Below the pieces are notes generated by a model. That model saw only the letters and a list, made by a program, of their open reading frames with translations, was not told the DNA's origin and searched no databases. From an uncultured bacterium (GTDB lineage Bacteria > Patescibacteriota > Minisyncoccia > Phycocordibacterales > PALSA-1337): a DNA stretch of 64,000 nt. The position numbers were made by a program, and so were the translations under genes. Location: assembly GCA_903839725.1 (NCBI GenBank), contig CAIMDG010000002.1, positions 135,739-199,738 of the forward strand. Direction: 5' to 3'. Below are positions 3,940 to 64,000 of this stretch, piece by piece (position 1 is the stretch's first letter; every line of letters starts with the position of its first letter).

Positions 3940-3979
3940 ATGATTGATTACTATTACTTTATAATGACTTTATTATACC

Positions 3980-6898
3980 CTATTTCACACACATCTTCGT
4001 GGTCGCATTCAAGGTATATCCTGTAGCACATAAATATGTGGCGGTCGCAGGCGTTACTTTGACAGCAGTTGAGTAACATTTCTGACCCTTGAGCACATAT
4101 CCAGATGAGCATGAATATACGTACGAGAATAGTCCTGTTACTGATTTTGTATATGTAGAATTTGCAACAATACCTACAGTGTCAGTACTTTCACAATTCG
4201 TACCATTCAACGTTGACCCTGAAGGACAGGTATATGACGTAGTCGCTGCGACACTAACCTGAGTAGTTTGTGTGGTTGCGGGCGTCGTAACTGTTCCTTC
4301 GCTGGTAGGATTCTCGATACACATAGAGCCGGACAGTGTGAACCCTGCTACTGTACATGCGTATATTGGAGTTGCCGGGAGAACTTGTGGAGTACATGTA
4401 CTGCCGCCTCCCATAACAGGTGTAGGTGTACATGCAACACTGATCTGTGTACACGTTGTTCCTGAGAGTGAGTAGTTCGCAGATGGACAGGTGTAACGAA
4501 TAAGTGTCGCAGGAATTGAATTGACTGGTGTTGTTGTAGTAGAGACCGGAAGAATTTTTATGGTTGGTGCGTAGAAATGGAATACACATTTTGAACCGGG
4601 GACCAAAGTGTAATAACCATTGATACCAGCAGGAACAGTAGGACATGTATAGGTCAGAGTTGCAGCTATCGCCAACGAAGTTGCTGTAATACATACATTT
4701 CCAACTGAGACTTTGCCTGCAGCACAAATGACTACTGTTCTCGTACCTGTTCCACCGGTACCCATTGTTCCAATCGGAACACACTTATTACCTACGAGGT
4801 TATAGACGAATCCACCTGGTTTTGGAGCTGGACATGTATACGCCACAGTCGCTGCTACAGTCGCACCTTCTGAGTAGGCACCACTGCCGATAGTAGGATT
4901 GCCTGAAACAGTAACCCCACTTGAATTTATCGTGACCTTAAAACTCGTTGCCGCCCATTCACTGTTAAATGAACCAACAGCGACACTGTATACCCCGTTT
5001 GGCATACTGCTTGGGATGACAAATGTTATGGATGTACCAGCTGCACTATCACTAGATATATTTCCTATAACATATGTTTTACCTATGGAATTTGTAACCT
5101 GGCCATGTGTATATGGTATGAGATTCTTGAAGAATGACCAGACGGCTCCAAAGAAACTAGAAATCTTTTCCATGAAAGAGTGCGGTGTTGCCACGAGCGT
5201 AGATGGGTCTTGCGCTTCAGCAAGTGCGGTGACGGTAAATTGGATCGAATTATTAGTTGGTGTAAAGTTTGAGCCCATCATTCTAAAGGTATTTGGTACC
5301 GATGAATTATTTACTTTACTCAAATTACTTGCAACAGGTTTTGCGGTAACTGCCGGTATCCCTTCTTTTGTAGTGTCCATGGACATACATTCCGGCCAAT
5401 GAGTTTCGGCATGCGCCTTGTCTATAGGTTCACGCAATATTGCTGAAACAAGGTAACCACAAGAAACTACATTGAATCGAGCATCAACAATTCTCTTGAA
5501 AGTACCGTCAGAAAGTATTGTCGAACTTGCCATAGGCAATATATTCATCAAACTCTTTGAACTTGGTATGTACATCTCAAGGCCTGGATCTTGTGCCTTC
5601 TGATTACTTGACATGGTACCTTTGATAGTCGTTGAACCATATAGTAAATTATTTTTACTGCTTCTAAATTCATCAATTGGGTTCACGACACAATTTTCAT
5701 CATATTTTCCAGCGTTCTGACCATCATATACACCATGATAAACGTGACTACAATTATACTCATCCGTCACCCATCCAATTGAATGACCTGATTCATGAAC
5801 TGGAACAAGGTAATAATCTTCTTTCGATTCATAATGACCATTTACTATCTCACGTATAGAGAGGTTAGGTAGGTATGTATTCGAAGTATTTCTATTGTCA
5901 AAAGTAGATCCATTCAGATGACTTGTTTTTGAACCACTGTCTATTAACATAAATATACTTTCCTTATCATCCCCGTATGGTAAGAAAGTTGTACCTGCAA
6001 CATTCCCTTCGCAACTGAAACCAGAAACAGTGGTCGATGTTAAAGGTGGTGCATCAAAAGGAACTTTAATTTGTTGCGTGGTATAAACAAGCGGGTGCAA
6101 ATCAACATAGAACGAAAACTTTGATACGTATGACTTGTATGGATCAGTATTAATAAAGACACCTATAACCTTATCAACATAATCAAGGTAGTCTTTTATT
6201 GTAGGCAATGCCAAAGACAAACTAGGTCCACGCATAAATACAACCTTAATTGATCCCTTCCCTCCTAAATAAACACAATTAGATGCCTTTACGAAGGTTG
6301 ATGATGTGTGCACTATCTTTGGTTGACTTGTTGACGTTGCAGTAAAATTAACTGTGTAACCTCCATTTTTTGCAACTGTTTCTATCAAAGCATCTTCACG
6401 CTGATTTTGTATTGAAGTAGATAATCTACTACCATTTACACTATTATCTATCGACTCTAATCCCGAATAATCTCTACTATCACCGGACCTGCCAATTTTA
6501 GAAGGATGATCTCCGCCGGTGTTATCATTAAAATTAAAACTTCCATTCAATGTTGTAATACTACCCACTGATCCATTACTTCCCCAAGTTACGGGTGGCG
6601 AAATCGTATTATCTGCGGGGAAACAATCTTTGGTATTTGTTGGATATGTAAAATGAATATTCTGAAGAATTGATGGAGGATTTTGAACAGGAAGTGTTCC
6701 TAGCCCACCACTCAAAGATGGTCCAAAAGGGATCATGTTAGAATCTACCCATTGGTCCTGCATATAACCACTAGATGTGAGTGATTTTATTTGATAACTA
6801 TACGAACATGCTGCATGAGCAGATTTGATTCCAGGGAGAATAATAGAAGCTACAAGGAGGAGAACAAAAAACGCACTAGCTTTGTATATAATTCTCAT
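3980..6898 (-). CDS. Secreted HExxH zinc metallopeptidase (972 aa) with a C-terminal array of about 25 aa Cys-containing repeats
   Basis: Signal peptide MRIIYKASAFFVLLLVASIILPGIKSAHA. Motif VPVHESGHSIGWVTDEY (HExxHxxGxxxDEY). The C-terminus has at least 7 repeats of the type (A/T)YTCPxxxxGxxLxGxxC, for example AYTCPAPKPGGFVYNLVGNKCV, TYTCPTVPAGINGYYTLVPGSKCV and SYTCPSGSTLNGTNCE. Confidence 0.8.
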   Translation of the reverse strand: MRIIYKASAFFVLLLVASIILPGIKSAHAACSYSYQIKSLTSSGYMQDQWVDSNMIPFGPSLSGGLGTLPVQNPPSILQNIHFTYPTNTKDCFPADNTISPPVTWGSNGSVGSITTLNGSFNFNDNTGGDHPSKIGRSGDSRDYSGLESIDNSVNGSRLSTSIQNQREDALIETVAKNGGYTVNFTATSTSQPKIVHTSSTFVKASNCVYLGGKGSIKVVFMRGPSLSLALPTIKDYLDYVDKVIGVFINTDPYKSYVSKFSFYVDLHPLVYTTQQIKVPFDAPPLTSTTVSGFSCEGNVAGTTFLPYGDDKESIFMLIDSGSKTSHLNGSTFDNRNTSNTYLPNLSIREIVNGHYESKEDYYLVPVHESGHSIGWVTDEYNCSHVYHGVYDGQNAGKYDENCVVNPIDEFRSSKNNLLYGSTTIKGTMSSNQKAQDPGLEMYIPSSKSLMNILPMASSTILSDGTFKRIVDARFNVVSCGYLVSAILREPIDKAHAETHWPECMSMDTTKEGIPAVTAKPVASNLSKVNNSSVPNTFRMMGSNFTPTNNSIQFTVTALAEAQDPSTLVATPHSFMEKISSFFGAVWSFFKNLIPYTHGQVTNSIGKTYVIGNISSDSAAGTSITFVIPSSMPNGVYSVAVGSFNSEWAATSFKVTINSSGVTVSGNPTIGSGAYSEGATVAATVAYTCPAPKPGGFVYNLVGNKCVPIGTMGTGGTGTRTVVICAAGKVSVGNVCITATSLAIAATLTYTCPTVPAGINGYYTLVPGSKCVFHFYAPTIKILPVSTTTTPVNSIPATLIRYTCPSANYSLSGTTCTQISVACTPTPVMGGGSTCTPQVLPATPIYACTVAGFTLSGSMCIENPTSEGTVTTPATTQTTQVSVAATTSYTCPSGSTLNGTNCESTDTVGIVANSTYTKSVTGLFSYVYSCSSGYVLKGQKCYSTAVKVTPATATYLCATGYTLNATTKMCVK

Positions 6899-10767: not shown

Positions 10768-10791
10768 GAAATATATTGTAACATTATTCTG

Positions 10792-11180
10792 TGGAGATGC
10801 TGGGAATCGAACCCAGGTGCAATTGATATTCATCGAACGACTCTACAGCGATATCAGACCTTGTTCCACGAAGTGGATTTAATGATTGTGATCCAGAAAG
10901 TCTGAAAAACACACAATCACGATCTCATTCCGCCCGAAGACGGATTCAAGAACTGAAGTGAGAAGCTTCAATCCCCTACATCCAGATTATTACGCCAACA
11001 TCATAGTCAGGATCCCCATGAAGTAACGGCTGTCGTTAAACGAGAGCGAATGCGAAGTCCTTTTGACCAAAATATGGTGAAACGGTTGATTTTGCATTTA
11101 GAATTTCCATCAGATTTACGAGTTAATGGTGCTCGCGCTGCACGAACGAGAATGGTCAACTGTCGAAGCCGATCATCCCC
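10792..11180 (-). ncRNA. ssrA: tmRNA (SsrA), about 389 nt, CCA not encoded
   Basis: The 5' end GGGGATGATCGGCTTCGACAG matches the tmRNA consensus GGGGnUGAUnCnGGnUUCGAC. The 3' end is GCACCTGGGTTCGATTCCCAGCATCTCCA, with a T-arm and a 7 bp acceptor pairing with the 5' GGGGATG (one G-U). The gene lies directly beside smpB. A candidate tag reading frame starts at a GCA about 86 nt from the 5' end: GCAAAATCAACCGTTTCACCATATTTTGGTCAAAAGGACTTCGCATTCGCTCTCGTTTAA gives AKSTVSPYFGQKDFAFALV*. Confidence 0.8.
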
Positions 11181-15852: not shown

Positions 15853-15893
15853 TGCTACATTATACGTGAAGAGGTGCAATAAGACCAAAGACA

Positions 15894-16017
15894 ATCACCC
15901 CAGACAACACGGCCCCCTGAAGACTCCGTTACGAACGAGTATAAATGCCTAAAGAATCACATAATGAAACGATATCCCGCTGGGAAGTCTTCAGGGGGCC
16001 GTGTTGTCTGGGGTGAT
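15894..16017. repeat. Long-palindrome element (full-core type): 32-33 bp perfect inverted-repeat arms around a conserved core
   Basis: Arms atcaccccagacaacacggccccctgaagact (15894-15925) and agtcttcagggggccgtgttgtctggggtgat. The core ccgttacgaacgagtataaatgcctaaagaatcacataatgaaacgatatcccgctggga is related to the cores at 56423, 58796, 61435 and 63810. Confidence 0.85.
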
Positions 16018-16038
16018 TGAAAACCGAACAGACAGAAA

Positions 16039-16162
16039 GGCAGAGAGGAATATGGGCGTGGTGGGAGACTGCCCGGAGGGATATCGTCTTTTCATTTTGT
16101 ACTTTAGGCACAACTCCTCGTACGTAACGACGTCTCCAACCACGCCCATATTCCTCTCCGCC
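16039..16162. repeat. Long-palindrome element (full-core type, opposite orientation), 31 bp arms with 2 mismatches
   Basis: Arms ggcagagaggaatatgggcgtggtgggagac and gtctccaaccacgcccatattcctctccgcc. The core cccggagggatatcgtcttttcattttgtactttaggcacaactcctcgtacgtaacg is the reverse complement of the family core. Confidence 0.8.
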
Positions 16163-16425
16163 TGAAAAATGTGGAAACAAAAAACACCTCAATGAGATGT
16201 GTTTTGTTGGTTGCAAGAGTAATGTACCTGGTAGTCCAGGTGGGTGATCTCACACAGAGCACCAAGGTGCCTGCGAATTTGATCTCCCTAAAAATGTGTT
16301 TTGTAGGATTTTACTCCTGCAGCCTGAATATATTATATGCCTCGAAAAAAAGGAGTACAAGAGCACAACATAGTTGCGACACTTTTCTTGATTTCGAGCA
16401 AAGTTGACAATGGAACGATATAGCG

Positions 16426-25037: not shown

Positions 25038-25160
25038 GGAACAAGAGAGGTGGTGTGTACTCACTTTCTGCAGAATTTTGGAAACGCTTGTGACGAACTA
25101 ATATGCCACAGTGTCTCTAAAATTCTGCAGAAAGTGAGTACACACCACCTCTCTTGTTCC
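25038..25160. repeat. Long-palindrome element (short-core type): 42 bp perfect arms and a 39 nt loop, between rplE and rpsN
   Basis: Arms ggaacaagagaggtggtgtgtactcactttctgcagaatttt and the exact reverse complement at 25119-25160. The loop ggaaacgcttgtgacgaactaatatgccacagtgtctct is related to the 5' part of the family core and to the 54262 copy (shared ...agtgtctct end). Confidence 0.85.
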
Positions 25161-50532: not shown

Positions 50533-52677
50533 CTATTTTCTCTTTTCAACGATAGCCTTCTCAACATTTCCTGGAACCACTTCATAGTGATCGAATTCCA
50601 TCATGGCACTTCCCTGACCTGATGTCATAGAGCGAAGTTGTGTGGTATATCCGAACATTTCTGACAATGGAACCTTGGCATGAATAGCAATCGCTTGACC
50701 ACGAGGTTCTGAACCTTCAACCTGTCCACGCTTTGAAGCAATAGAACCGTTGACGTCACCCATATACTTTTCTGGTGCGATAACTTCGAGCTTCATGATA
50801 GGTTCGAGGATAACTGGCTTCGCGCGCTTTGCAGCATCCTGGAATGCTTGTGATGCAGCGATCTTGTAGGCAATTTCTGATGAGTCAACATCGTGATACG
50901 AACCGAAAGTAAGTTCACAAGAAACATTCACCATTTTGAAACCAGCAACAATACCGCGATCGAGAGCTTCGCGAACACCCTTTTCAACTGCTGGAATGAA
51001 TTCATTTGGAATAACACCTCCCTTGATAGAGTTGATGAATTCAAAGTCATCATAACGCTTAACGTTCTTTGGAATCTTTTCACCCTCAACGAGAGGTTCC
51101 ATAGGTTTGAGGGTGAGACGGACGTGACCGTACTGACCTTTACCTCCTGTCTGCTTGATATATTTGTGTTCAGCTTCAGCAGTATTCATGATTGTCTCAC
51201 GATATGCTACCTGAGGTTCACCAACATTTGCTTCAACACCGAATTCACGCTTCATACGATCAACCATGATTTCGAGGTGGAGTTCTCCCATTCCCGAAAT
51301 AATAGTCTCGCCTGTTTCAGGGTTTGAAGTGATACGGAATGTTGGATCTTCGTTACCAAGTTTCTTCAAAGCCATACCCATTTTTTCTTGGTCAGCCTTT
51401 GTCTTTGGTTCAATGCGGAGAGAGACCACAGGTTCCATGAATTTGATAACTTCGAGAATGATAGGATTGGCTTCATCACAGAATGTGTGAGAAGTAAGAG
51501 CATCTTTCAAACCAACGGCTGCAGCAATTTCCCCCGCGAACACTTTCTTCACTTCTTCACGCTTGTCAGCCTGGAGACGAACGATACGGCCGAGACGTTC
51601 CTTCTTGCCTGTCGTAGCATTGTAAATATATGTTCCTGCTTCGATCGATCCTGAATACACACGGAAGAATGTGAGTGCTCCGACGAATGGATCGTTTTGA
51701 AGTTTGAATGCGAGAGCTGAGAAAGGTTCAGTATCAGATGCATGACGTTCGATCTCGCCTCCAGTATTTGGATCAATACCCTTGATAGCTGGCATATCGA
51801 GTGGAGATGGGAGGTAATCAACAACTGCGTCGAGAACCAACTGAACTCCAACGTTCTTCAAAGCTGAACCGGTAAAGACTGGGAAAATCTTGTTTGCAAT
51901 AACTGCTTTACGAGCAACTACTTTGAAATCTGCGATAGAAATTTCTTTACCATCAAGGAAGTTCTGCATAGCAACATCATCTGTTTCAACAACCTTTTCA
52001 ATCATTTCTGCACGATATTTCTTTGCATCTTCGAGCATATCTGCAGGAATCTCCTTTTCGATAATGTTAATACCCTTCTCACCGTCGAAGAAGTACGCCT
52101 TCATTTTCAAAAGATCAACAACACCTTCATGATTAGACTCATTTCCGATAGGAAGTTGGAAACGAACTGCATTCTTATTCAAGCGCTCAAGAATAGACTT
52201 GTATGAACGTTCGAATGATGCACCCATGCGGTCCATCTTGTTGATGAAACACAAACGAGGAACCTTGGCTTCATCGGCATAACGCCAGTTAGTCTCAGAC
52301 TGAGGTTCAACGCCGGCCACGCCGTCGAAGACCACAACCGCACCGTCGAGCACGCGGAGAGAACGCTTCACTTCTACAGTAAAGTCGATGTGTCCTGGTG
52401 TATCGATGATGTTGAAACGAACTTTCTTTGAAACATCTTCCTTGGGCATATACGAAGGATTCCAAAAACAAGTGATCGCAGCCGCAGTAATAGTAATACC
52501 GCGTTCACGTTCCTGTTCCATCCAGTCAGTAGTTGTTTCACCTTCGTGAACTTCACCAATCTTGTGGATCATACCTGTGTAATACAGGATACGTTCTGAA
52601 GTTGTAGTTTTGCCGGCATCAATGTGAGCAATGATACCGAAGTTGCGTACCTTATCGAGTGAGTAATCGCGATTCAT
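50533..52677 (-). CDS. fusA: Elongation factor G
   Basis: AHIDAGKTTTSERILYYTG, DTPGHIDF and NKMDR motifs. 714 aa. Confidence 0.95.
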   Translation of the reverse strand: MNRDYSLDKVRNFGIIAHIDAGKTTTSERILYYTGMIHKIGEVHEGETTTDWMEQERERGITITAAAITCFWNPSYMPKEDVSKKVRFNIIDTPGHIDFTVEVKRSLRVLDGAVVVFDGVAGVEPQSETNWRYADEAKVPRLCFINKMDRMGASFERSYKSILERLNKNAVRFQLPIGNESNHEGVVDLLKMKAYFFDGEKGINIIEKEIPADMLEDAKKYRAEMIEKVVETDDVAMQNFLDGKEISIADFKVVARKAVIANKIFPVFTGSALKNVGVQLVLDAVVDYLPSPLDMPAIKGIDPNTGGEIERHASDTEPFSALAFKLQNDPFVGALTFFRVYSGSIEAGTYIYNATTGKKERLGRIVRLQADKREEVKKVFAGEIAAAVGLKDALTSHTFCDEANPIILEVIKFMEPVVSLRIEPKTKADQEKMGMALKKLGNEDPTFRITSNPETGETIISGMGELHLEIMVDRMKREFGVEANVGEPQVAYRETIMNTAEAEHKYIKQTGGKGQYGHVRLTLKPMEPLVEGEKIPKNVKRYDDFEFINSIKGGVIPNEFIPAVEKGVREALDRGIVAGFKMVNVSCELTFGSYHDVDSSEIAYKIAASQAFQDAAKRAKPVILEPIMKLEVIAPEKYMGDVNGSIASKRGQVEGSEPRGQAIAIHAKVPLSEMFGYTTQLRSMTSGQGSAMMEFDHYEVVPGNVEKAIVEKRK

Positions 52678-52697
52678 ATAATCTTAAAAATTAAATA

Positions 52698-53094
52698 TTA
52701 AATCTCAAATTTTAGTAATCTTACTATTTTTCTTCATTGTAATTATACTCGCTCCCAATATATTTGATATCTCAACAGTCTCCTTAAGAATCGTTTCTGC
52801 TATGTCTTTTTGAAGCTTTCCTGTATCACGAGCCAATCCTATCCATAATTTAGACTCATTTGCAGACTTTAAACTATACGTGTAGAAATTGATGTAATCT
52901 TTTCTAGAACTTGCACCTTTAGCTTCAACAACATTCGCAACAACCGATGTTCCACTTCTTATCAACTGTCTTGCAATCACCTGACCTGAAATATCTTTAG
53001 AGAACTTATCGACGCATCTCACAATCTCAATGGCATACTTGTATAATCTTGCATCAATTTCCTTCTTCGTCATTTTTGAGATTTGAGATTTAAT
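52698..53094 (-). mobile_element. Putative mobile cassette: four-helix-bundle gene bounded by 14 bp perfect terminal inverted repeats
   Basis: attaaatctcaaat at 52698-52711 and its exact reverse complement atttgagatttaat at 53081-53094. The left repeat includes the gene's stop codon and the right repeat lies 8 nt upstream of its ATG. Extra partial tandem copies of tttgagattt occur at 53075-53091. The cassette interrupts the conserved rpsG-fusA junction. Confidence 0.55.
52705..53073 (-). CDS. Four-helix-bundle protein (TIGR02436-like; 23S rRNA intervening-sequence protein family)
   Basis: MTKKEIDARLYKYAIEIVRCVDKFSKDISGQVIARQLIRSGTSVVANVVEAKGASSRKDYINFYTYSLKSANESKLWI matches the four-helix-bundle family pattern (SxxANIAEG-like SGTSVVANVVEA, FxxFLxIAxGSxxE-like). 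Confidence 0.75.
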   Translation of the reverse strand: MTKKEIDARLYKYAIEIVRCVDKFSKDISGQVIARQLIRSGTSVVANVVEAKGASSRKDYINFYTYSLKSANESKLWIGLARDTGKLQKDIAETILKETVEISNILGASIITMKKNSKITKI

Positions 53095-53109
53095 CTTTCA
53101 GATTGAAAC

Positions 53110-53580
53110 TTACCAAGCAAAGTGAGCAAAAGCCTTGTTTGCTTCCGCCATCTTGTGAACGTTTTCACGCTTCTTAACTGCTTCTCCTTCATTCTTTGAT
53201 GCTGCGATGATTTCGTCAGCGAGTTTGAGGTGTATAGGCTTTCCCTTCTTTCCACGAGCCGCTTCAACGATCCACTTCATAGAAAGTGAATTCTTGCGTT
53301 CTGGGCGAACTTCACGAGGAACTTGGTAGTTTGCTCCACCGACACGGCGTGAACGAACTTCCATAGCTGGTGCAGTATTCTTGAGAGCCGCCTCGAAAAC
53401 TTCGAGAGGATTCTCATTTTTTGTCTGTTCTTTAATCGCAATCATACAATCAGCAACAATCTGGCGAGCAATGTTCTTCTTGCCTGACTCCATAATATAG
53501 TTAGTAAGCTTGGCGAGTTTCAATGACTGATATGTCACATCTGGCTTGAGCTCACGCTTGAGGTTTAATTTTCTTCGCAT
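53110..53580 (-). CDS. rpsG: 30S ribosomal protein S7
   Basis: 156 aa with the pattern RRVGGANYQVPREVRPERKNSLSMKWIVEAARGKKGKPIHLKLADEIIAASKNEG. Confidence 0.93.
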   Translation of the reverse strand: MRRKLNLKRELKPDVTYQSLKLAKLTNYIMESGKKNIARQIVADCMIAIKEQTKNENPLEVFEAALKNTAPAMEVRSRRVGGANYQVPREVRPERKNSLSMKWIVEAARGKKGKPIHLKLADEIIAASKNEGEAVKKRENVHKMAEANKAFAHFAW

Positions 53581-53591
53581 AGTAGTAGGGG

Positions 53592-54008
53592 TTATTTAGC
53601 TGCTTTTGGCTTCTTGTTACCATATTGACTGCGACCTTTTCTGCGCTTATCTACGCCAGCTGCATCGAGCACACCGCGAACAACTGAGTAACGGAGACCA
53701 ACGTCTTTGACGCGACCGCCACGAAGGAGGACCACTGAGTGTTCCTGGAGGTTGTGACCTTCACCTGGAATATATGCAGTAACTTCAAGACCATTTGTAA
53801 GACGAACACGAGCAATCTTGCGGATAGCTGAGTTAGGCTTCTTTGGAGTCTTTGTTGTAACTTTCACGCACACGCCGCGCTTGAATGGAGCCGGGAAGAA
53901 AACTGGTCGGTTCTTGACCGAGTTGAAGGTGCGGGTGAGCGCAATAGACTTCGACTTGCGGGTGAAGCGAGCACGATTCTTCTTGATTAACTGGTTGATT
54001 GTAGGCAT
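53592..54008 (-). CDS. rpsL: 30S ribosomal protein S12
   Basis: [10 protein letters not shown]... [18 protein letters not shown] ... [15 protein letters not shown] is the canonical S12. Confidence 0.95.
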
Positions 54009-54046
54009 GAATAAAATTAGTTTACAGTAAAAAATGAAAAGTGATT
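54009..54046 (-). promoter_or_regulatory. Conserved leader motif copy C (5' leader of rpsL)
   Basis: aataaaattagtttacagtaaaaaatgaaaagtgatta shares the core TTAGTTTACAGT(G/A)AAAAATGAAAAGT with copies A and B. Confidence 0.65.
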
Positions 54047-54261
54047 AGTTGGACGCACAGCAGCGCGCATACAACTTTGCACTTTACACTTCTAACTTTT
54101 AACTGTTATGTGGCAGTCCTGAATTATTCACCGCTTTGGGTTTGAGATATACCCTGACGATTACTCATTCTTGCCGTAATAATGTACTGGTCCAAAGTTT
54201 CCTTTAGATAGTGGAGATACCATATCATATAGATAGAGGATGTACAAGATATGAGAGTACG

Positions 54262-54375
54262 ACAGGAGGAGGGGCATTACTCATTTTCCGCACAAGTTTA
54301 GAGACACTTACATTACACAGCGTACCGCAGTGTTTACAAACTTGTGCGGAAAATGAGTAATGTCCCTCCTCCTGT
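54262..54375. repeat. Long-palindrome element (short-core type): 38 bp arms (1 mismatch) and a 38 nt loop, upstream of the rpsL leader
   Basis: Arms acaggaggaggggcattactcattttccgcacaagttt and aaacttgtgcggaaaatgagtaatgtccctcctcctgt. The loop gagacacttacattacacagcgtaccgcagtgtttac is related, as its reverse complement, to the 25038 copy's loop. Confidence 0.85.
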
Positions 54376-54401
54376 TGTGCGTATTGATTTAAATCAAGCC
54401 T

Positions 54402-55004
54402 CTAAAAACCAGTAAAAATCCTTAAAATAAATGGTATTACTGGGTATACAAATTGCCATACGATCAAAAGAGCGATCATGACAAAGAATGGAGAATACGC
54501 TTCGAGCGTCATGCGAACTCTTCCATATTGTTGTGGTAATACTGAAAAAAGAAGTTTTGAACCATCGAGAGGTGGTAAAGGAATCAAATTGAATACTGCA
54601 AGAGTAATATTGATAATCACAATATACATTGATATGTATATAAACGGTGTCATAGAACCATCAAAAGTAAAACGAATAATCGTGCCGAAAATAAAAGCGA
54701 TAATGATATTTGAAGCAGGGCCGGCAAGAGCAATCAGGAATTCTCCCCAACGTTTATTCTTGAGATTGTACGGATTGTAGATGACGGGCTTTGCCCAACC
54801 AAAAGAAAAACTAGTGAGTAGATATGTCATGATTGGTACGACGATAGAACCAACTGGATCAATGTGTTTGAGCGGATTCAAGGTCAATCTCCCCTGTAAA
54901 CGAGCGGTTGGATCACCAAGTACATCAGCCATATAGCCATGAGATACCTCATGGACAATAACTGAAAATATAAGAATGACTATAGAAAGTATCGTAATCA
55001 ACAT
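54402..55004 (-). CDS. M50 family (site-2 protease-like) membrane zinc metalloprotease
   Basis: IVHEVSHGYMADVLGD (HExxH in a TM helix). 200 aa and polytopic. Confidence 0.75.
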   Translation of the reverse strand: MLITILSIVILIFSVIVHEVSHGYMADVLGDPTARLQGRLTLNPLKHIDPVGSIVVPIMTYLLTSFSFGWAKPVIYNPYNLKNKRWGEFLIALAGPASNIIIAFIFGTIIRFTFDGSMTPFIYISMYIVIINITLAVFNLIPLPPLDGSKLLFSVLPQQYGRVRMTLEAYSPFFVMIALLIVWQFVYPVIPFILRIFTGF

Positions 55005-58795: not shown

Positions 58796-58930
58796 CCCAA
58801 GCAGCCGCACACATAGTATCCTGCCAAAACATCCGTAACGTTCTAATATAAGGGCCTAAAGTACAATATTAAAAGACGATATCCCGCTGGGAATTGTTTC
58901 GTCAGGATACTATGTGTGCGGCTGCTTGGG
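58796..58930. repeat. Long-palindrome element (full-core type); 28 bp perfect arms
   Basis: Arms cccaagcagccgcacacatagtatcctg and caggatactatgtgtgcggctgcttggg. Core ccaaaacatccgtaacgttctaatataagggcctaaagtacaatattaaaagacgatatcccgctgggaattgtttcgt. Confidence 0.9.
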
Positions 58931-58937
58931 TAACCAA

Positions 58938-59669
58938 TTATAGAAGTTGTTCAAACTCTTCAATCACTTTTTGTTCATCTACGATATCGAGAGATTTCTT
59001 GTATCGAGCACCCTTTACACCTTTGACGCGCTTCTCACATTCAGCCCAACTATGATCAACGTGAATAGCACCACCAACAGAACTGATATATGAAAATGCT
59101 TTTGCGTTTGAACGAGATGAACTCGACTTTTTTGTTTTCATGGCAACACTATCGTGTGAAACATCGAGAATATTCGGAAGATCATAGCGAGACAATGGAC
59201 CAGAATAAAGTTTCGTCGCACCATTATCGGCGAAATCCGTAGCAATGTGATCACAACGCTCATTTCCAATAATACCAACGTGTCCACCAACATATTCCCA
59301 TTTCACAGAACGATCTTTGACTGCAGCATCTAGTTTCATCCAAAGATCTTTATTGACCACATCATCTTTTGTTTTTGTGATCCAACCATTATTTTTCCAA
59401 CCTTTGATCCATAAAGTAATTCCATTGATCAGATACTTTGAGTCTGTAAACACAGTAATACCTGAATGTTTTGGTGTATGCAAAATTCCCTCAGTAGCCG
59501 CCATAAGTTCCATTCTATTGTTTGTTGTGTGCTTCTCTGCACTACCAAGTTCGGTCACCGTATCGCTCGTAACGACGACACTACCCCAACCACCTGGACC
59601 AGGATTTCCACGAGACGAACCATCAGTAAAAATTGTTATTGAATTCATAGGATGATTATACCACTTCAA
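58938..59669 (-). CDS. rnhA: Ribonuclease HI with a C-terminal extension
   Basis: ITIFTDGSSRGNPGPGGWG...TNNRMELMAA...VFTDSKYLING...GHVGIIGNERCD are RNase H1 catalytic-residue contexts (D, E, D, D). Overlaps the recJ 3' end by 14 nt. Confidence 0.8.
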   Translation of the reverse strand: MKWYNHPMNSITIFTDGSSRGNPGPGGWGSVVVTSDTVTELGSAEKHTTNNRMELMAATEGILHTPKHSGITVFTDSKYLINGITLWIKGWKNNGWITKTKDDVVNKDLWMKLDAAVKDRSVKWEYVGGHVGIIGNERCDHIATDFADNGATKLYSGPLSRYDLPNILDVSHDSVAMKTKKSSSSRSNAKAFSYISSVGGAIHVDHSWAECEKRVKGVKGARYKKSLDIVDEQKVIEEFEQLL

Positions 59670-61413
59670 TTACTCTCAGCCTCAATTCTGGTCTTCCTCG
59701 AAACATAGACTTTTCAACTGAAGCAATTAAATTTATTTTTGTATTCGCTTTGAGATTCTTGGCCCATTCAGTAGGAGCGGCAAAAAATGCAATTGCAGGA
59801 ATCTTTGCTCCACTTTTTTTCTTAAATATAATCTCCACGTGATTATTTGTTTTACCAAATATACGTACCGAATCAGCGACAATATTCTTGAACAAAAATA
59901 CTGGTCGAGGATTGCCGACACCAAATGGGGCTAGTTTCGAAATATCATCAAACAAACTCCACATCACGTCCTCAATTGATAATTCTTTATCAATAATAAT
60001 CTGACCGATTTCTTCAGCTTCTTTAACATTTTCTGCATTTGTTTGATTTAAGATTTGAGATTTTATATTTGAGATTTTCTTCGCACTTTCATTCAGGCGA
60101 CTATCTAGAAAGTGAATAGCATCATTCCCAACAGCAAACCCTCCTGAATGATGATGTCCTCCAAATTGTAAGAATGTTCCTTCAAGAGCTCCTTTCATAA
60201 TCTCAACAACATTCGAAGTACCTTCAGAACGACATGATCCTTTGATCACATCTCCACCATCTCGTCCCCAAAGGAATACCGGACGCTTAAATTCTTCAGC
60301 ACATGAATTTGCAGCGAGACCAAGGAGGGATGGTCGCCATTCGGGATTACCGAGGACGATCGCGTGAGGGATGACGTCACCGTGACGTTCATGCACTTTC
60401 TTTTTCACATCTTTAACAAGAGCAGCAACCATACCTTTTCGCTCATTATTTATTTCATCGAGATGGTCAGCAAAAAACTTCGCATCTTCTTCTGTTTGTG
60501 CAGAGAGCAGCTTGAACGCATCCATAGGAACCCCCATACGAGATGCGGCATTGATGCGTGGAGAAATCATAAAACCAATATCATCTTCGGTAATATATTT
60601 CTGTGGAATCTTTAATTTTGCCAGTAATCGCACCAAACCAAGACGCTGACTTTTTCGTAATACATTCAAGCCGTATTGTGCGAGCACTCTATTCTCGCCA
60701 ATGAGAGGTACCATATCTGAGAGTGTTGCCATGCCAACGAGATCAAGGAGCCATTTCTCCATCCCCTCTTTGAGACCGAAGCGTTCGATCTTCAGAATTG
60801 CTTGAATGAGTTTGAAAGCTACACCAGATCCGCAGAGAAATTTGTCTGGGTACATACAATCAACCTGTTTATGATCAACAATCGCATATGCAGGAGGTAC
60901 GTGTGCAGGAGCTTCATGGTGATCAGTTATGATAACTTCAAGGCCTTTTGAGTTGGCGTGCGCGACGGGTACTACATCTGAAATACCACAATCAACCGTT
61001 ACTATCAGTTTCACACCTTGTGAAACGAGTTCATTAACCGCTTCAACATTCAAACCAAAGCCTTCATCGTGGCGGTGTGGAATGTAAATAATAAAGTTCT
61101 TGAATGAAATGCGGACAAAAAAATCATTCCATATTACAGCACCAGGAATACCATCAGCGTCATAGTCTGCATATATAGCAATCTTCTCATCACTCTTGAT
61201 TGCTTGAATGATACGGCGTGCGGCCTTCTCTGCATCTTTTAATAGAAATGGATCATGTATGTCTCGATCATAGCTCGGGGTCAAAAATGTGTCAGCGGAA
61301 ACAGCATCAGTTATTCCGCGATGAAATAATAAATGTGAAACAAGGTCAGAACTGAGACCGAGTGCATTTTTTTCTTCAACAGATAATGGTTTTCGTACTG
61401 AATATGCAGGCAT
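59656..61413 (-). CDS. recJ: Single-stranded-DNA-specific exonuclease RecJ (DHH/DHHA1)
   Basis: ...IYADYDADGIPGA..., ...ITDHHE... (DHH motif), and a C-terminal OB-like region. The start is taken at the internal ATG 61413, because the longer ORF-track N-terminus is encoded by the palindrome element. Confidence 0.85.
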   Translation of the reverse strand: MPAYSVRKPLSVEEKNALGLSSDLVSHLLFHRGITDAVSADTFLTPSYDRDIHDPFLLKDAEKAARRIIQAIKSDEKIAIYADYDADGIPGAVIWNDFFVRISFKNFIIYIPHRHDEGFGLNVEAVNELVSQGVKLIVTVDCGISDVVPVAHANSKGLEVIITDHHEAPAHVPPAYAIVDHKQVDCMYPDKFLCGSGVAFKLIQAILKIERFGLKEGMEKWLLDLVGMATLSDMVPLIGENRVLAQYGLNVLRKSQRLGLVRLLAKLKIPQKYITEDDIGFMISPRINAASRMGVPMDAFKLLSAQTEEDAKFFADHLDEINNERKGMVAALVKDVKKKVHERHGDVIPHAIVLGNPEWRPSLLGLAANSCAEEFKRPVFLWGRDGGDVIKGSCRSEGTSNVVEIMKGALEGTFLQFGGHHHSGGFAVGNDAIHFLDSRLNESAKKISNIKSQILNQTNAENVKEAEEIGQIIIDKELSIEDVMWSLFDDISKLAPFGVGNPRPVFLFKNIVADSVRIFGKTNNHVEIIFKKKSGAKIPAIAFFAAPTEWAKNLKANTKINLIASVEKSMFRGRPELRLRVIEVV

Positions 61414-61434
61414 CGTTGAAGTATACCAGATGAA

Positions 61435-61561
61435 AAAGAAGTTCCCACAACAAGCCTGACGAAACAATTCCCAGCGGGATATCGTCTCATTACTTAATAC
61501 TTCAGGCACTAATAAGAGGACGTCACAGATGTTTCGTCAGGCTTGTTGTGGGAACTTCTTG
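61435..61561. repeat. Long-palindrome element (full-core type, reverse orientation) between divergent recJ and the DnaA-domain-IV-like gene; 32 bp perfect arms
   Basis: Arms aagaagttcccacaacaagcctgacgaaaca and tgtttcgtcaggcttgttgtgggaacttctt. Core attcccagcgggatatcgtctcattacttaatacttcaggcactaataagaggacgtcacaga. Confidence 0.9.
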
Positions 61562-63809: not shown

Positions 63810-63936
63810 AGGTAACCTACATATCACAGCCTGACGAAACATCCGTAACGTTCTAATATAAGTGCCTAAAGTACAATATTAAAAGACGATATCCCGCTGG
63901 GAATTGTTTCGTCAGGCTGTGATATGTAGGTTACCT
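63810..63936. repeat. Long-palindrome element (full-core type) 24 nt upstream of the pgk start; 32 bp perfect arms
   Basis: Arms aggtaacctacatatcacagcctgacgaaaca and tgtttcgtcaggctgtgatatgtaggttacct. Core tccgtaacgttctaatataagtgcctaaagtacaatattaaaagacgatatcccgctgggaat. Confidence 0.9.
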
Positions 63937-64000
63937 ATTTGAGATTACAACACGACAACATCAACCGCTTTCAACAATTCTTTGAAACCAGGAATATTGA

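Follow-up and report, generated by a model that had tools for sequence, protein, structure and literature searches.

A four-helix-bundle gene between rpsG and fusA of a patescibacterial genome lies within complementary heptamer arms and resembles an rRNA intervening sequence

Why does a gene for a small four-helix-bundle (4HB) protein, bracketed by inverted repeats, sit inside a str operon between the genes for ribosomal protein S7 (rpsG) and elongation factor G (fusA)? The question is raised by a 64,000-nt stretch of DNA from an uncultured bacterium of the Patescibacteriota (GenBank assembly GCA_903839725.1, contig CAIMDG010000002.1, positions 135,739 to 199,738; G+C content 43%), referred to below as the window. 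On its minus strand lie, in order, rpsL (53592-54008), rpsG (53110-53580), the 4HB open reading frame (ORF; 52705-53073), and fusA (50533-52677). Our analysis gives about an even chance to the following answer: that the gene and its repeats form a cassette of the intervening sequence (IVS) type, in which a 4HB gene lies within complementary arms built of 7-nt units that would play a role at the RNA level, with probable cleavage by RNase III.

The arms fill the spacers on both sides of the 4HB gene. The upstream ('A-type') arm (GTTTCAATCTGAAAGATTAAATCTCAAATCTCAAAA; 53074-53109, minus strand) consists of about five heptads with the consensus (C/T)AAATCT, a motif kept in relatives. It is the entire rpsG-4HB spacer up to the 4HB ATG, it contains no Shine-Dalgarno sequence, and its first paired base is separated by 4 nt from the rpsG stop codon (53110-53112). 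The downstream ('T-type') arm (AAAATTTGAGATTTAATATTTAATTTTTAAGATTAT; 52678-52712, minus strand), about five heptads of AGATTTN, starts in the last 4HB codons, includes the 4HB stop codon, and reaches the fusA ATG, which is flush against it; it is thus the whole fusA 5' leader. Between the two, the 122-codon 4HB gene forms the loop of a potential long-range stem.

At the core of the arms is a perfect 14-mer inverted repeat, ATTTGAGATTTAAT, with one copy at 53081-53094, exactly where a first-pass annotation of this DNA had placed it. The complementary copy contains the 4HB stop codon (TCA, 52705-52707), as had also been stated, and lies at 52697-52710, one base further left than the 52698-52711 given there. 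The repeat extends to 30 nt (27 pairs, 87% complementary) between the best-pairing runs 52680-52709 and 53075-53104, and to 41 nt at 73%. Tandem Repeats Finder detects period 7 in both arms (52680-52714, 5 copies; 53075-53091) and again at 60045-60077 (4.7 copies). The 10-mer TTTGAGATTT occurs five times in the window (52700 on the minus strand, 53075, 53082, 60054, and 60068), compared with an expectation of 0.49 from dinucleotide shuffles, and 0 of 100 shuffles reach five. The excess proposed in the first-pass annotation is therefore real, although its chance figure of 0.1 was too low. A flank score, defined as the best ungapped complementarity of the 70-nt flanks of a gene, is 20 for the window 4HB gene (z=12.1; reached by 0 of 100 shuffles). 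The inverted repeat is real and far from chance.

The protein belongs, over nearly its full length, to the PF05635 / TIGR02436 family (S23p, 23S rRNA-intervening sequence protein), as had been recognized for this gene between rpsG and fusA. It passes both curated hidden Markov model (HMM) cut-offs, with E=3.9e-20 and 72.5 bits (cut-off 33.8) over residues 11-107 for PF05635 and E=1e-23 and 83.6 bits (cut-off 24) over residues 9-113 for TIGR02436. Its nearest solved structure is PDB 2rld (E=4.5e-14), and PADLOC and PHROGs contained no match to it. The gene is present in a single copy in the window; searches found 535 homologues. An identical protein is encoded on 17 metagenome contigs, each time in the order rpsL-rpsG-4HB-fusA (S7 on these contigs matches Pfam PF00177), and the nearest named homologues of S7 and the 4HB protein are labelled Candidatus Taylorbacteria, Paceibacterota, Pacebacteria, or Patescibacteria.

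A metagenome scan for encoded relatives of the 4HB protein yielded 58 loci. In 24 of these the gene lies at the str locus, between S7 (54-85% identical) and EF-G (61-85%), with an A-type arm (…TCAATCTnAAATCTCAAATnTAAAATCTCAAATCT) after the rpsG stop codon and a T-type arm (…AGATTTGAGATTTGAGATTTAATTTTTGAGATTGAAAC) before the fusA ATG. In the other 34 the homologue is elsewhere, at about ten other types of intercistronic site, and is bracketed by arms likewise. These sites, named from our reading of the neighbouring proteins and in one case confirmed by Pfam, include leuC-leuD, purF-purM, trpS-ftsH, gyrB-Mur ligase, pilus genes (pilB), ABC-transporter genes, the position before efp, and rpsN-rpsH. 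The expectation in the first-pass annotation that other genes of the family would be flanked by such repeats was thus borne out at many unrelated sites, as was its suggestion that units of this kind occupy scattered loci: they are seen at many patescibacterial intercistronic sites and, with other heptamers, on cyanobacterial plasmids.

Flank scores were compared between 39 distinct Patescibacteria 4HB genes and 197 control genes from the same DNA. The median was 15.5 for the 4HB genes and 7 for the controls (Mann-Whitney p=4.5e-14), a score of 15 was reached by 56% and 3.6%, respectively, and for 25 of the 39 genes the observed score was unmatched by any of 100 shuffles. At most low-scoring loci, the 4HB gene is separated from the outer upstream arm by one or two additional small ORFs. 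When about 230 kb was scanned for the arm motifs, nearly all matches fell just upstream (A-type) or just downstream (T-type) of 4HB genes. The 39 neighbour genes that were scored all run in the same direction as the 4HB gene, where 86% would be the baseline (p about 0.003).

At many loci, among them L009, L023, L025, L026, and L039, the last 4HB codons form a heptad (…AAG ATT TGA/TAA) that pairs with AAATCTT right before the ATG, so that the stem closes exactly on the start and stop codons of the ORF. Some cassettes enclose extra ORFs within their arms (L011 2455-2958, L037 1312-1818, L019 1181-1714; L016 2810-2974 and relatives). One encodes a conserved protein of 167 aa whose IPDF…D…FVEVKFR motif is PD-(D/E)XK-like by eye only; others encode an unrelated 177-aa protein or 54-aa transmembrane peptides. 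Because none matches Pfam, NCBIfam, or PDB, we do not assign them as homing nucleases, an identity that is an unverified guess.

Junctions between rpsG and fusA that lack the 4HB gene are also informative. The closest relative by nucleotides, L064 (rpsG 85%, fusA 86%), and a second locus, L066, carry other cargo in this spacer, without arms; homology between the window and L064 ends exactly at the rpsG stop codon and restarts at the fusA ATG. The L064 spacer holds a 1.6-kb gene set (3972-5607) with an opposite-strand YtxH-like gene, small ORFs, and an ORF6N-domain protein, whereas that of L066 holds one 144-aa ORF. A further contig, which encodes the S7 protein P0133 and is known from its gene list alone, likewise has a spacer filled by other genes and no 4HB gene. 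L065 has the cassette and both arms, with 82% identity throughout. Thus the gene-free junctions that had been sought among relatives exist and lack the arms, but they contain other cargo in place of a clean empty site; the rpsG-fusA junction is a hot spot for variable cargo. Since the same arms surround the gene at other sites and 4HB-free junctions have none, the arms belong to the 4HB gene and not to the junction.

The sequence of the heptamer unit varies among clades of Patescibacteria (AAATCTC; AAATCAA / AAGATCA; TATCTAA; and AAATCCG in a distant paralogue), with complementarity kept. Arms of the main clade vary so little, and their register is so ambiguous, that alignment-based covariation is uninformative, and we therefore replaced it with cross-clade pairing and with the heptamers of plasmids. 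In the cross-pairing test, cognate and same-clade combinations had a mean score of ~20 and cross-clade combinations a mean of 10.5. A tblastn search against plasmids returned 31 records, most of them from cyanobacteria and labelled "four helix bundle protein", of which 14 loci were analysed. Ten of the 14 have perfect or near-perfect tandem heptamers upstream and a reverse-complement array downstream (z=8.5-27), and flank scores were 10.5-35 for the 14 plasmid 4HB loci but at most 10 for 28 neighbouring genes. The units are AATTCGC; AATTCGT; AATTCAA; CGTAATT with TGGAATT; AATCCCC with AATCGTA; ATTTTAG; ACCAGTG; and GAGGTCG. Because these heptamers differ and the arrays nevertheless stay complementary, the unit sequence is free, whereas the period of 7 and the complementarity are constrained. 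The same anatomy is present in at least two distant phyla.

Several of the plasmid 4HB genes are located in defence loci (L191, L198, and L200 on Nostoc, Anabaena, and Pseudanabaena plasmids; L190, L192, and L194). Gene pairs that flank them include cas2 and cas1 (on the opposite strand), csx2 and cas1, a DUF1156 gene and a HEPN gene, and helicase and methyltransferase genes.

To what known element does this anatomy correspond? The intervening sequences of rRNA genes were recognized around 1990 and are classically inserted at helix 25 or 45; ORF-containing ones occur in the 23S rRNA genes of Leptospira, Coxiella burnetii, Brucella, and Xanthomonas. To our knowledge, how they spread, or what the 4HB ORF does, has never been explained. 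In the Coxiella IVS, terminal inverted repeats form a stem of 28 bp whose loop contains an S23p (PF05635) ORF; three to four tandem heptamers (GACAGAT) closely precede the ATG, and RNase III excises the element by cutting within the stem (PMC4990558). ORFs of the 23S_rRNA_IVP type have also been reported in 16S and 23S rRNA insertions of candidate phyla radiation (CPR) bacteria (PMC11270868).

The window cassette shares with these elements complementary termini, with a stem in the range of ~20-30 bp (about 28-30 bp in both), a PF05635 ORF as the loop, and heptamers directly before the ATG, as well as dependence on read-through, a sporadic distribution, and no known mobility mechanism (PMC4990558). 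It differs in lying between the rpsG stop codon and the fusA start codon, an mRNA intercistronic spacer between two protein genes, and it is consequently no rRNA IVS in the strict sense, since an rRNA gene is the defining host site. Moreover, its arms double as leaders, both for the ORF and for the gene downstream, and its ORF is under strong purifying selection, unlike that of Coxiella, which is decaying and probably untranslated. An rRNA IVS is removed from its precursor by RNase III with no re-ligation; for the window stem, such excision is a prediction. By this comparison, the cassette most probably works like an rRNA IVS.

Folding predictions are consistent with a stem. In a 541-nt model transcript the mean pair probability was 0.81 over 30 arm positions, with most positions above 0.9, and the arm stem was present in both the minimum free energy and the centroid structures. 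The predicted duplex energy was -20.8 kcal/mol for arm segments of 38 and 40 nt and -30.9 kcal/mol for the 70-nt flanks (z=-5.5). No Shine-Dalgarno-like sequence was seen upstream of 20 long ORFs of the window, the leaders of which are A/T-rich. A promoter and terminator scan of 52400-54500 found 8 promoter-like sites where 4.6 were expected, including a 9/12 match in the downstream arm directly before the fusA ATG; neither result is convincing.

The sequence of events that we propose runs as follows. The cassette, in sense orientation within a str-operon spacer, would be reached by transcription that reads through from rpsL-rpsG. Within this RNA the arms would pair into a stem of ~30 bp that loops out the whole 4HB ORF and places the rpsG stop codon beside the fusA start codon. 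The comparison with 23S rRNA intervening sequences that carry an ORF suggests that this stem would most likely be an RNase III substrate, and cleavage would free the 4HB message and split the rpsL-rpsG message from that of fusA. With Shine-Dalgarno sequences absent, and with no leader other than the arms in front of either the 4HB gene or fusA, such a stem must affect translation of both, so that pairing or cleavage would also set how each is translated. Pairing in vivo, RNase III cleavage, and the effect of the arms on translation are what we infer from this anatomy.

Several observations weigh against the RNA-level interpretation. RNAalifold, applied to eight mini-elements of the AAATCTC clade, found compensatory change in only 2 of 21 pairs, with a covariation term of +0.95. 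The fold of the whole 466-nt element is no more stable than that of shuffles (z=0.21), so that the terminal stem alone stands out. Arm mismatches on the sense strand comprise 31 G:U and 42 A:C, which do not differ significantly; as there is no G:U excess, there is no RNA-specific signature, and a constraint at the DNA level fits equally well. The conservation of main-clade arms goes far beyond the needs of pairing, which hints at sequence-specific recognition by a protein, and the perfect plasmid arrays of equal length would also fit a DNA-level process or a heptamer-reading protein. No RNase III signature motif was found in the window, a result that is uninformative for a 64-kb piece. Finally, the ORF here is clearly functional, unlike that in Coxiella, and the element is thus no mere spacer.

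How old is the cassette, and does it move? A neighbour-joining tree places all str-locus 4HB proteins in a single clade, and those from other site types also cluster by site. Distances between 4HB proteins correlate with those between S7 proteins (Mantel r=0.58, p=0.001) and between EF-G proteins (r=0.56, p=0.0015), compared with 0.73 between S7 and EF-G. The ratio of nonsynonymous to synonymous substitution rates (dN/dS) of the 4HB gene is 0.03-0.09, in the same range as S7, with the value of 0.09 found against L065; there, synonymous divergence (dS) is ~1.1, near saturation, yet the downstream arm is identical at 34 of 34 nt. Together, the single clade, the Mantel correlations, the low dN/dS, and the identity of the arm indicate that the str-locus cassette is old, mostly vertically inherited, and functional, with its protein under strong purifying selection. 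It probably entered the spacer long ago in a lineage of Parcubacteria/Paceibacteria type and was passed on mostly vertically since, with occasional loss, replacement, or relocation, its protein being kept by purifying selection.

Such exceptions can be seen. One locus, L019, is nested in the str clade yet located between rpsN and rpsH; its left end is the same as that of str cassettes (GTTCCC, a GC mini-hairpin, TCAATCT…) and directly follows the S14 stop codon. The whole unit has therefore relocated once, from the rpsG-fusA spacer to the rpsN-rpsH spacer. At L006 (2521-2726), the downstream arm is followed by a 51-nt foreign fusA 5' end (MNRDYPLEQVRNFGVIA; ~65% nucleotide identity to the resident copy), then by ~155 nt of GC-rich sequence, and only then by the resident fusA start, which suggests that this cassette arrived by recombination with a piece of donor fusA. 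Hairpins made of both arms without an ORF occur in other spacers (L039 and L132). The L132 hairpin (4250-4345, in a metagenome-assembled genome [MAG] of Candidatus Paceibacterota) fills the spacer of two co-oriented genes and adjoins a VirB4-like ORF (judged from its translation only); its loop is ATG-GTT-TAA, as would remain after precise removal of the 4HB ORF between its start and stop codons. Relocation, ORF-less hairpins, and replaced junctions show past mobility.

These traces favour the best-placed alternative, in which the arms act at the DNA level as terminal inverted repeats of a non-autonomous cassette resembling a miniature inverted-repeat transposable element (MITE), with heptamer arrays that bind a recombinase supplied in trans or the 4HB protein itself; movement or copying of the cassette would take place at the level of DNA, and any RNA stem would be incidental. 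Like MITEs, it is a compact unit with short terminal inverted repeats and ORF-less derivatives that is found at many sites, about ten or more different intercistronic ones in this case. The transfer of a whole unit with identical ends to the rpsN-rpsH spacer, arm conservation beyond pairing needs, and the lack of G:U bias all fit this explanation, as do the cyanobacterial arrays, whose perfection and equal length on both sides suggest concerted evolution of the arms, and the extra ORF with a D...EVK-like motif noted by eye in some cassettes. However, the extra ORFs match no family or solved structure, no transposase or recombinase was present in or beside any cassette examined, and the cassettes have no known partner transposase. 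The window arms lack the flanking direct repeat of a target-site duplication, and no clean empty site was found among relatives, where cassette-free junctions carry other cargo; terminal inverted repeats are present at both ends, as in MITEs, but they are tandem heptamers rather than unique sequences. Movement must be rare, given that copies group by locus and diverge along with host genes, and strict sense orientation with a flush stop/start fit is what a constraint on the transcript predicts. We consider this MITE-like explanation of the arms unlikely. The first-pass description of a "selfish mini-cassette" is apt for a compact unit bounded by inverted repeats, but not for one that is selfish at present, given the single clade, the co-divergence, and the purifying selection; nothing that we saw at the str locus points to selfish mobility that is recent or active, and the 64 kb of this genome contain one cassette and one orphan arm.

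A second alternative keeps the stem in the RNA and dispenses with cleavage. The stem would be a device for translational control or coupling that hides the Shine-Dalgarno-less leaders of the 4HB gene and fusA until ribosomes finishing rpsG or the 4HB gene melt it, coupling fusA to rpsG across a 400-nt insert and throttling the 4HB gene. The geometry suits this well, since the arms are exactly the two leaders and the stem runs from 4 nt past the rpsG stop codon, via the 4HB stop codon, to the fusA ATG. Where Shine-Dalgarno sequences are not seen, unstructured leaders matter, and the innermost pairs at many loci join AAATCTT before the ATG to AAGATTT in the last codons and stop. Heptamer direct repeats upstream of start codons have been described as a candidate translational signal (PMC4679880), and (AAATCTC)n runs precede start codons in other phyla. 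Yet the proposal is wholly inferential and compatible with RNase III cleavage, it leaves unexplained both the ORF-less hairpins and the plasmid arrays between convergent or opposite-strand genes (e.g., cas2-4HB-cas1), and the missing G:U bias counts against it too. We consider it unlikely.

Two further explanations fare much worse. That the inverted repeat is a property of the rpsG-fusA junction, such as an attenuator or an S7 regulatory hairpin into whose loop the 4HB gene had landed, might be suggested by str loci with extra ORFs, where the arms are outermost, beside rpsG and fusA; nevertheless, the same arms at leuC-leuD, purF-purM, pilB, trpS-ftsH, gyrB-mur, ABC-transporter, and rpsN-rpsH sites, and the junctions that have neither 4HB gene nor arms, lead us to reject this as very improbable. 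Chance complementarity of low-complexity spacers, to which their A/T-richness and the wide occurrence of (GAGATTT)n as a simple repeat in many phyla might point, is refuted to the point of being negligible by dinucleotide-preserving shuffles that never reach the observed scores, by the 39-gene comparison, and by recurrence in dozens of independent loci and on plasmids with unrelated, partly GC-containing heptamers.

Is the heptamer itself, then, a marker of the IVS-type cassette? A scan for TTTGAGATTTGAGATTT in one genome per species gave at least 120 loci, in Cyanobacteria, Planctomycetota, Verrucomicrobiota, Acidobacteriota, Bacteroidota, and CPR bacteria. Among the 120 loci listed, an HMM found a 4HB ORF nearby in 1, and an opposite-type array lay within 1.5 kb in 16; most are solitary runs at gene starts, and some code for an in-frame KSQISNL extension. 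Because (GAGATTT)n occurs in many phyla without a nearby 4HB gene, the word alone is not diagnostic, and we rejected it as a cassette marker outside CPR bacteria. The concern that it might simply be a common word thus holds in part, runs being widespread in many phyla, alongside its genuine excess within the window.

Among these loci (L067-L186; e.g., L074, L086, L104, L108, and L095), (GAGATTT)n or (AAATCTC)n runs stand directly before start codons, provide N-terminal in-frame KSQISNL extensions of Rossmann-fold enzymes, follow stop codons as runs of at least 10 units, or, in a Prevotella MAG, form a short-loop hairpin. Arms of other heptamers without a 4HB gene were also seen: at L006 (~1000-1620), short-loop hairpins of (GTACCTA)n/(TAGGTAC)n lie on both sides of rpsL, and at L015 (4952-5423, minus strand), a gene judged from sequence to be NUDIX-like is bracketed by (GTAGGTT)n/(AACCTAC)n.

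The window itself contains an orphan A-type array in recJ (59656-61509), at 60045-60080 on the minus strand, where it is read in frame as …AKKISNIKSQILNQ…. It is identical at 28 of 28 nt to the upstream arm of a distant locus, L037, and no partner arm was found for it. Its two copies of the 10-mer start at 60054 and 60068, and hence 14 nt apart rather than the 17 nt first reported; a weaker copy noted at 63937 does match, at 9 of 10 bases, and is unremarkable. The idea that TTTGAGATTT-like words are insertion targets is unsupported, the recJ copy being an in-frame orphan arm. At other loci, …KISNLKSQK is the end of the upstream ORF, which terminates within the arm. All three frames of the A-type strand are open, whereas each frame of the T-type strand contains TGA.

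Over-represented heptameric repeats have been described before, as GGGAATC / GGGGATT arrays in Xanthomonas and Nostoc (PMC4692102) and as TAACTGA repeats in Beggiatoaceae, Cyanobacteria, and Bacteroidetes (PMC4679880). Xanthomonas has 70-75 such arrays per genome, as convergent inverted pairs, and both reports leave the function of the repeats unknown. Like these repeats, including the cyanobacterial heptanucleotide, the window arrays are tandem 7-nt units in spacers between co-oriented genes, often a few nt before a start codon; they differ in unit sequence and in enclosing a gene. The solitary (GAGATTT)n runs resemble the described repeats (PMC4679880, PMC4692102). Text searches of PMC4692102 and PMC4679880 for "S23" and "helix bundle" gave 0 occurrences, and in the searchable literature we found no description of heptamer-armed 4HB cassettes in protein-coding operons or of a link between 4HB genes and heptamer arrays.

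PF05635 also resembles Avd, the accessory protein of diversity-generating retroelements (PMC10053308). The 4HB protein shares the fold and superfamily of this nucleic-acid-handling protein, but no reverse transcriptase or template/variable repeats adjoin its gene, and S7 and EF-G are its neighbours on every contig with the protein. One could go further and view 4HB genes with heptamer arrays as a single widespread and so far unrecognized element type of CPR bacteria, cyanobacteria, Bacteroidota, and proteobacteria, in which the rRNA IVS is a special case, the protein reads its own arms, and orphan heptamers (the cyanobacterial heptanucleotide, GGGAATC, TAACTGA, and (GAGATTT)n) are ORF-less derivatives, footprints, or landing sites. 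We offer this as a speculative extension that is unlikely to hold.

The window has other structured features. Three intergenic hairpins form one family (58796-58930, 61436-61560, and 63810-63936), with arms of 31-36 nt (94-100% complementary), loops of ~63 nt, a common inner stem CCTGACGAAACA…TGTTTCGTCAGG, different outer stems, and no Rfam match; the segments 61453-61543 and 63828-63918 are inverted copies, being 85% complementary to each other. Two adjacent hairpins (15892-16019 and 16038-16163) have a similar geometry, with arms of 32-34 nt (94-100% complementary) and loops of ~60 nt, and a different sequence. Two more, at 25038-25160 and 54259-54378, are ~120 nt long, with 50-nt arms (90-94% complementary), loops of ~20 nt, and a common …TACTCAyTTTCyGCAsAA…; the second separates an M50 peptidase gene from rpsL and immediately precedes the str operon. 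The only Rfam match in the window is a transfer-messenger RNA (tmRNA) gene at 10789-11180 (99 bits), whose tag peptide is AKSTVSPYFGQKDFAFALV.

The first-pass reading of the locus as a compact unit holds in its structural part and generalizes much further than was proposed. A design of stem, ORF, and heptamers is present in protein-coding operons, flush between stop and start codons, which recasts the rRNA IVS as one habitat of a broader cassette. For annotation, genes labelled "four helix bundle protein" in conserved operons are to be read as inserts with defined ends and not as operon members. The cassettes provide many independent natural variants for testing pairing, RNase III cleavage, and recognition of the repeats by the protein, and they offer a lead on over-represented heptameric repeats whose function has been unexplained (PMC4692102, PMC4679880).

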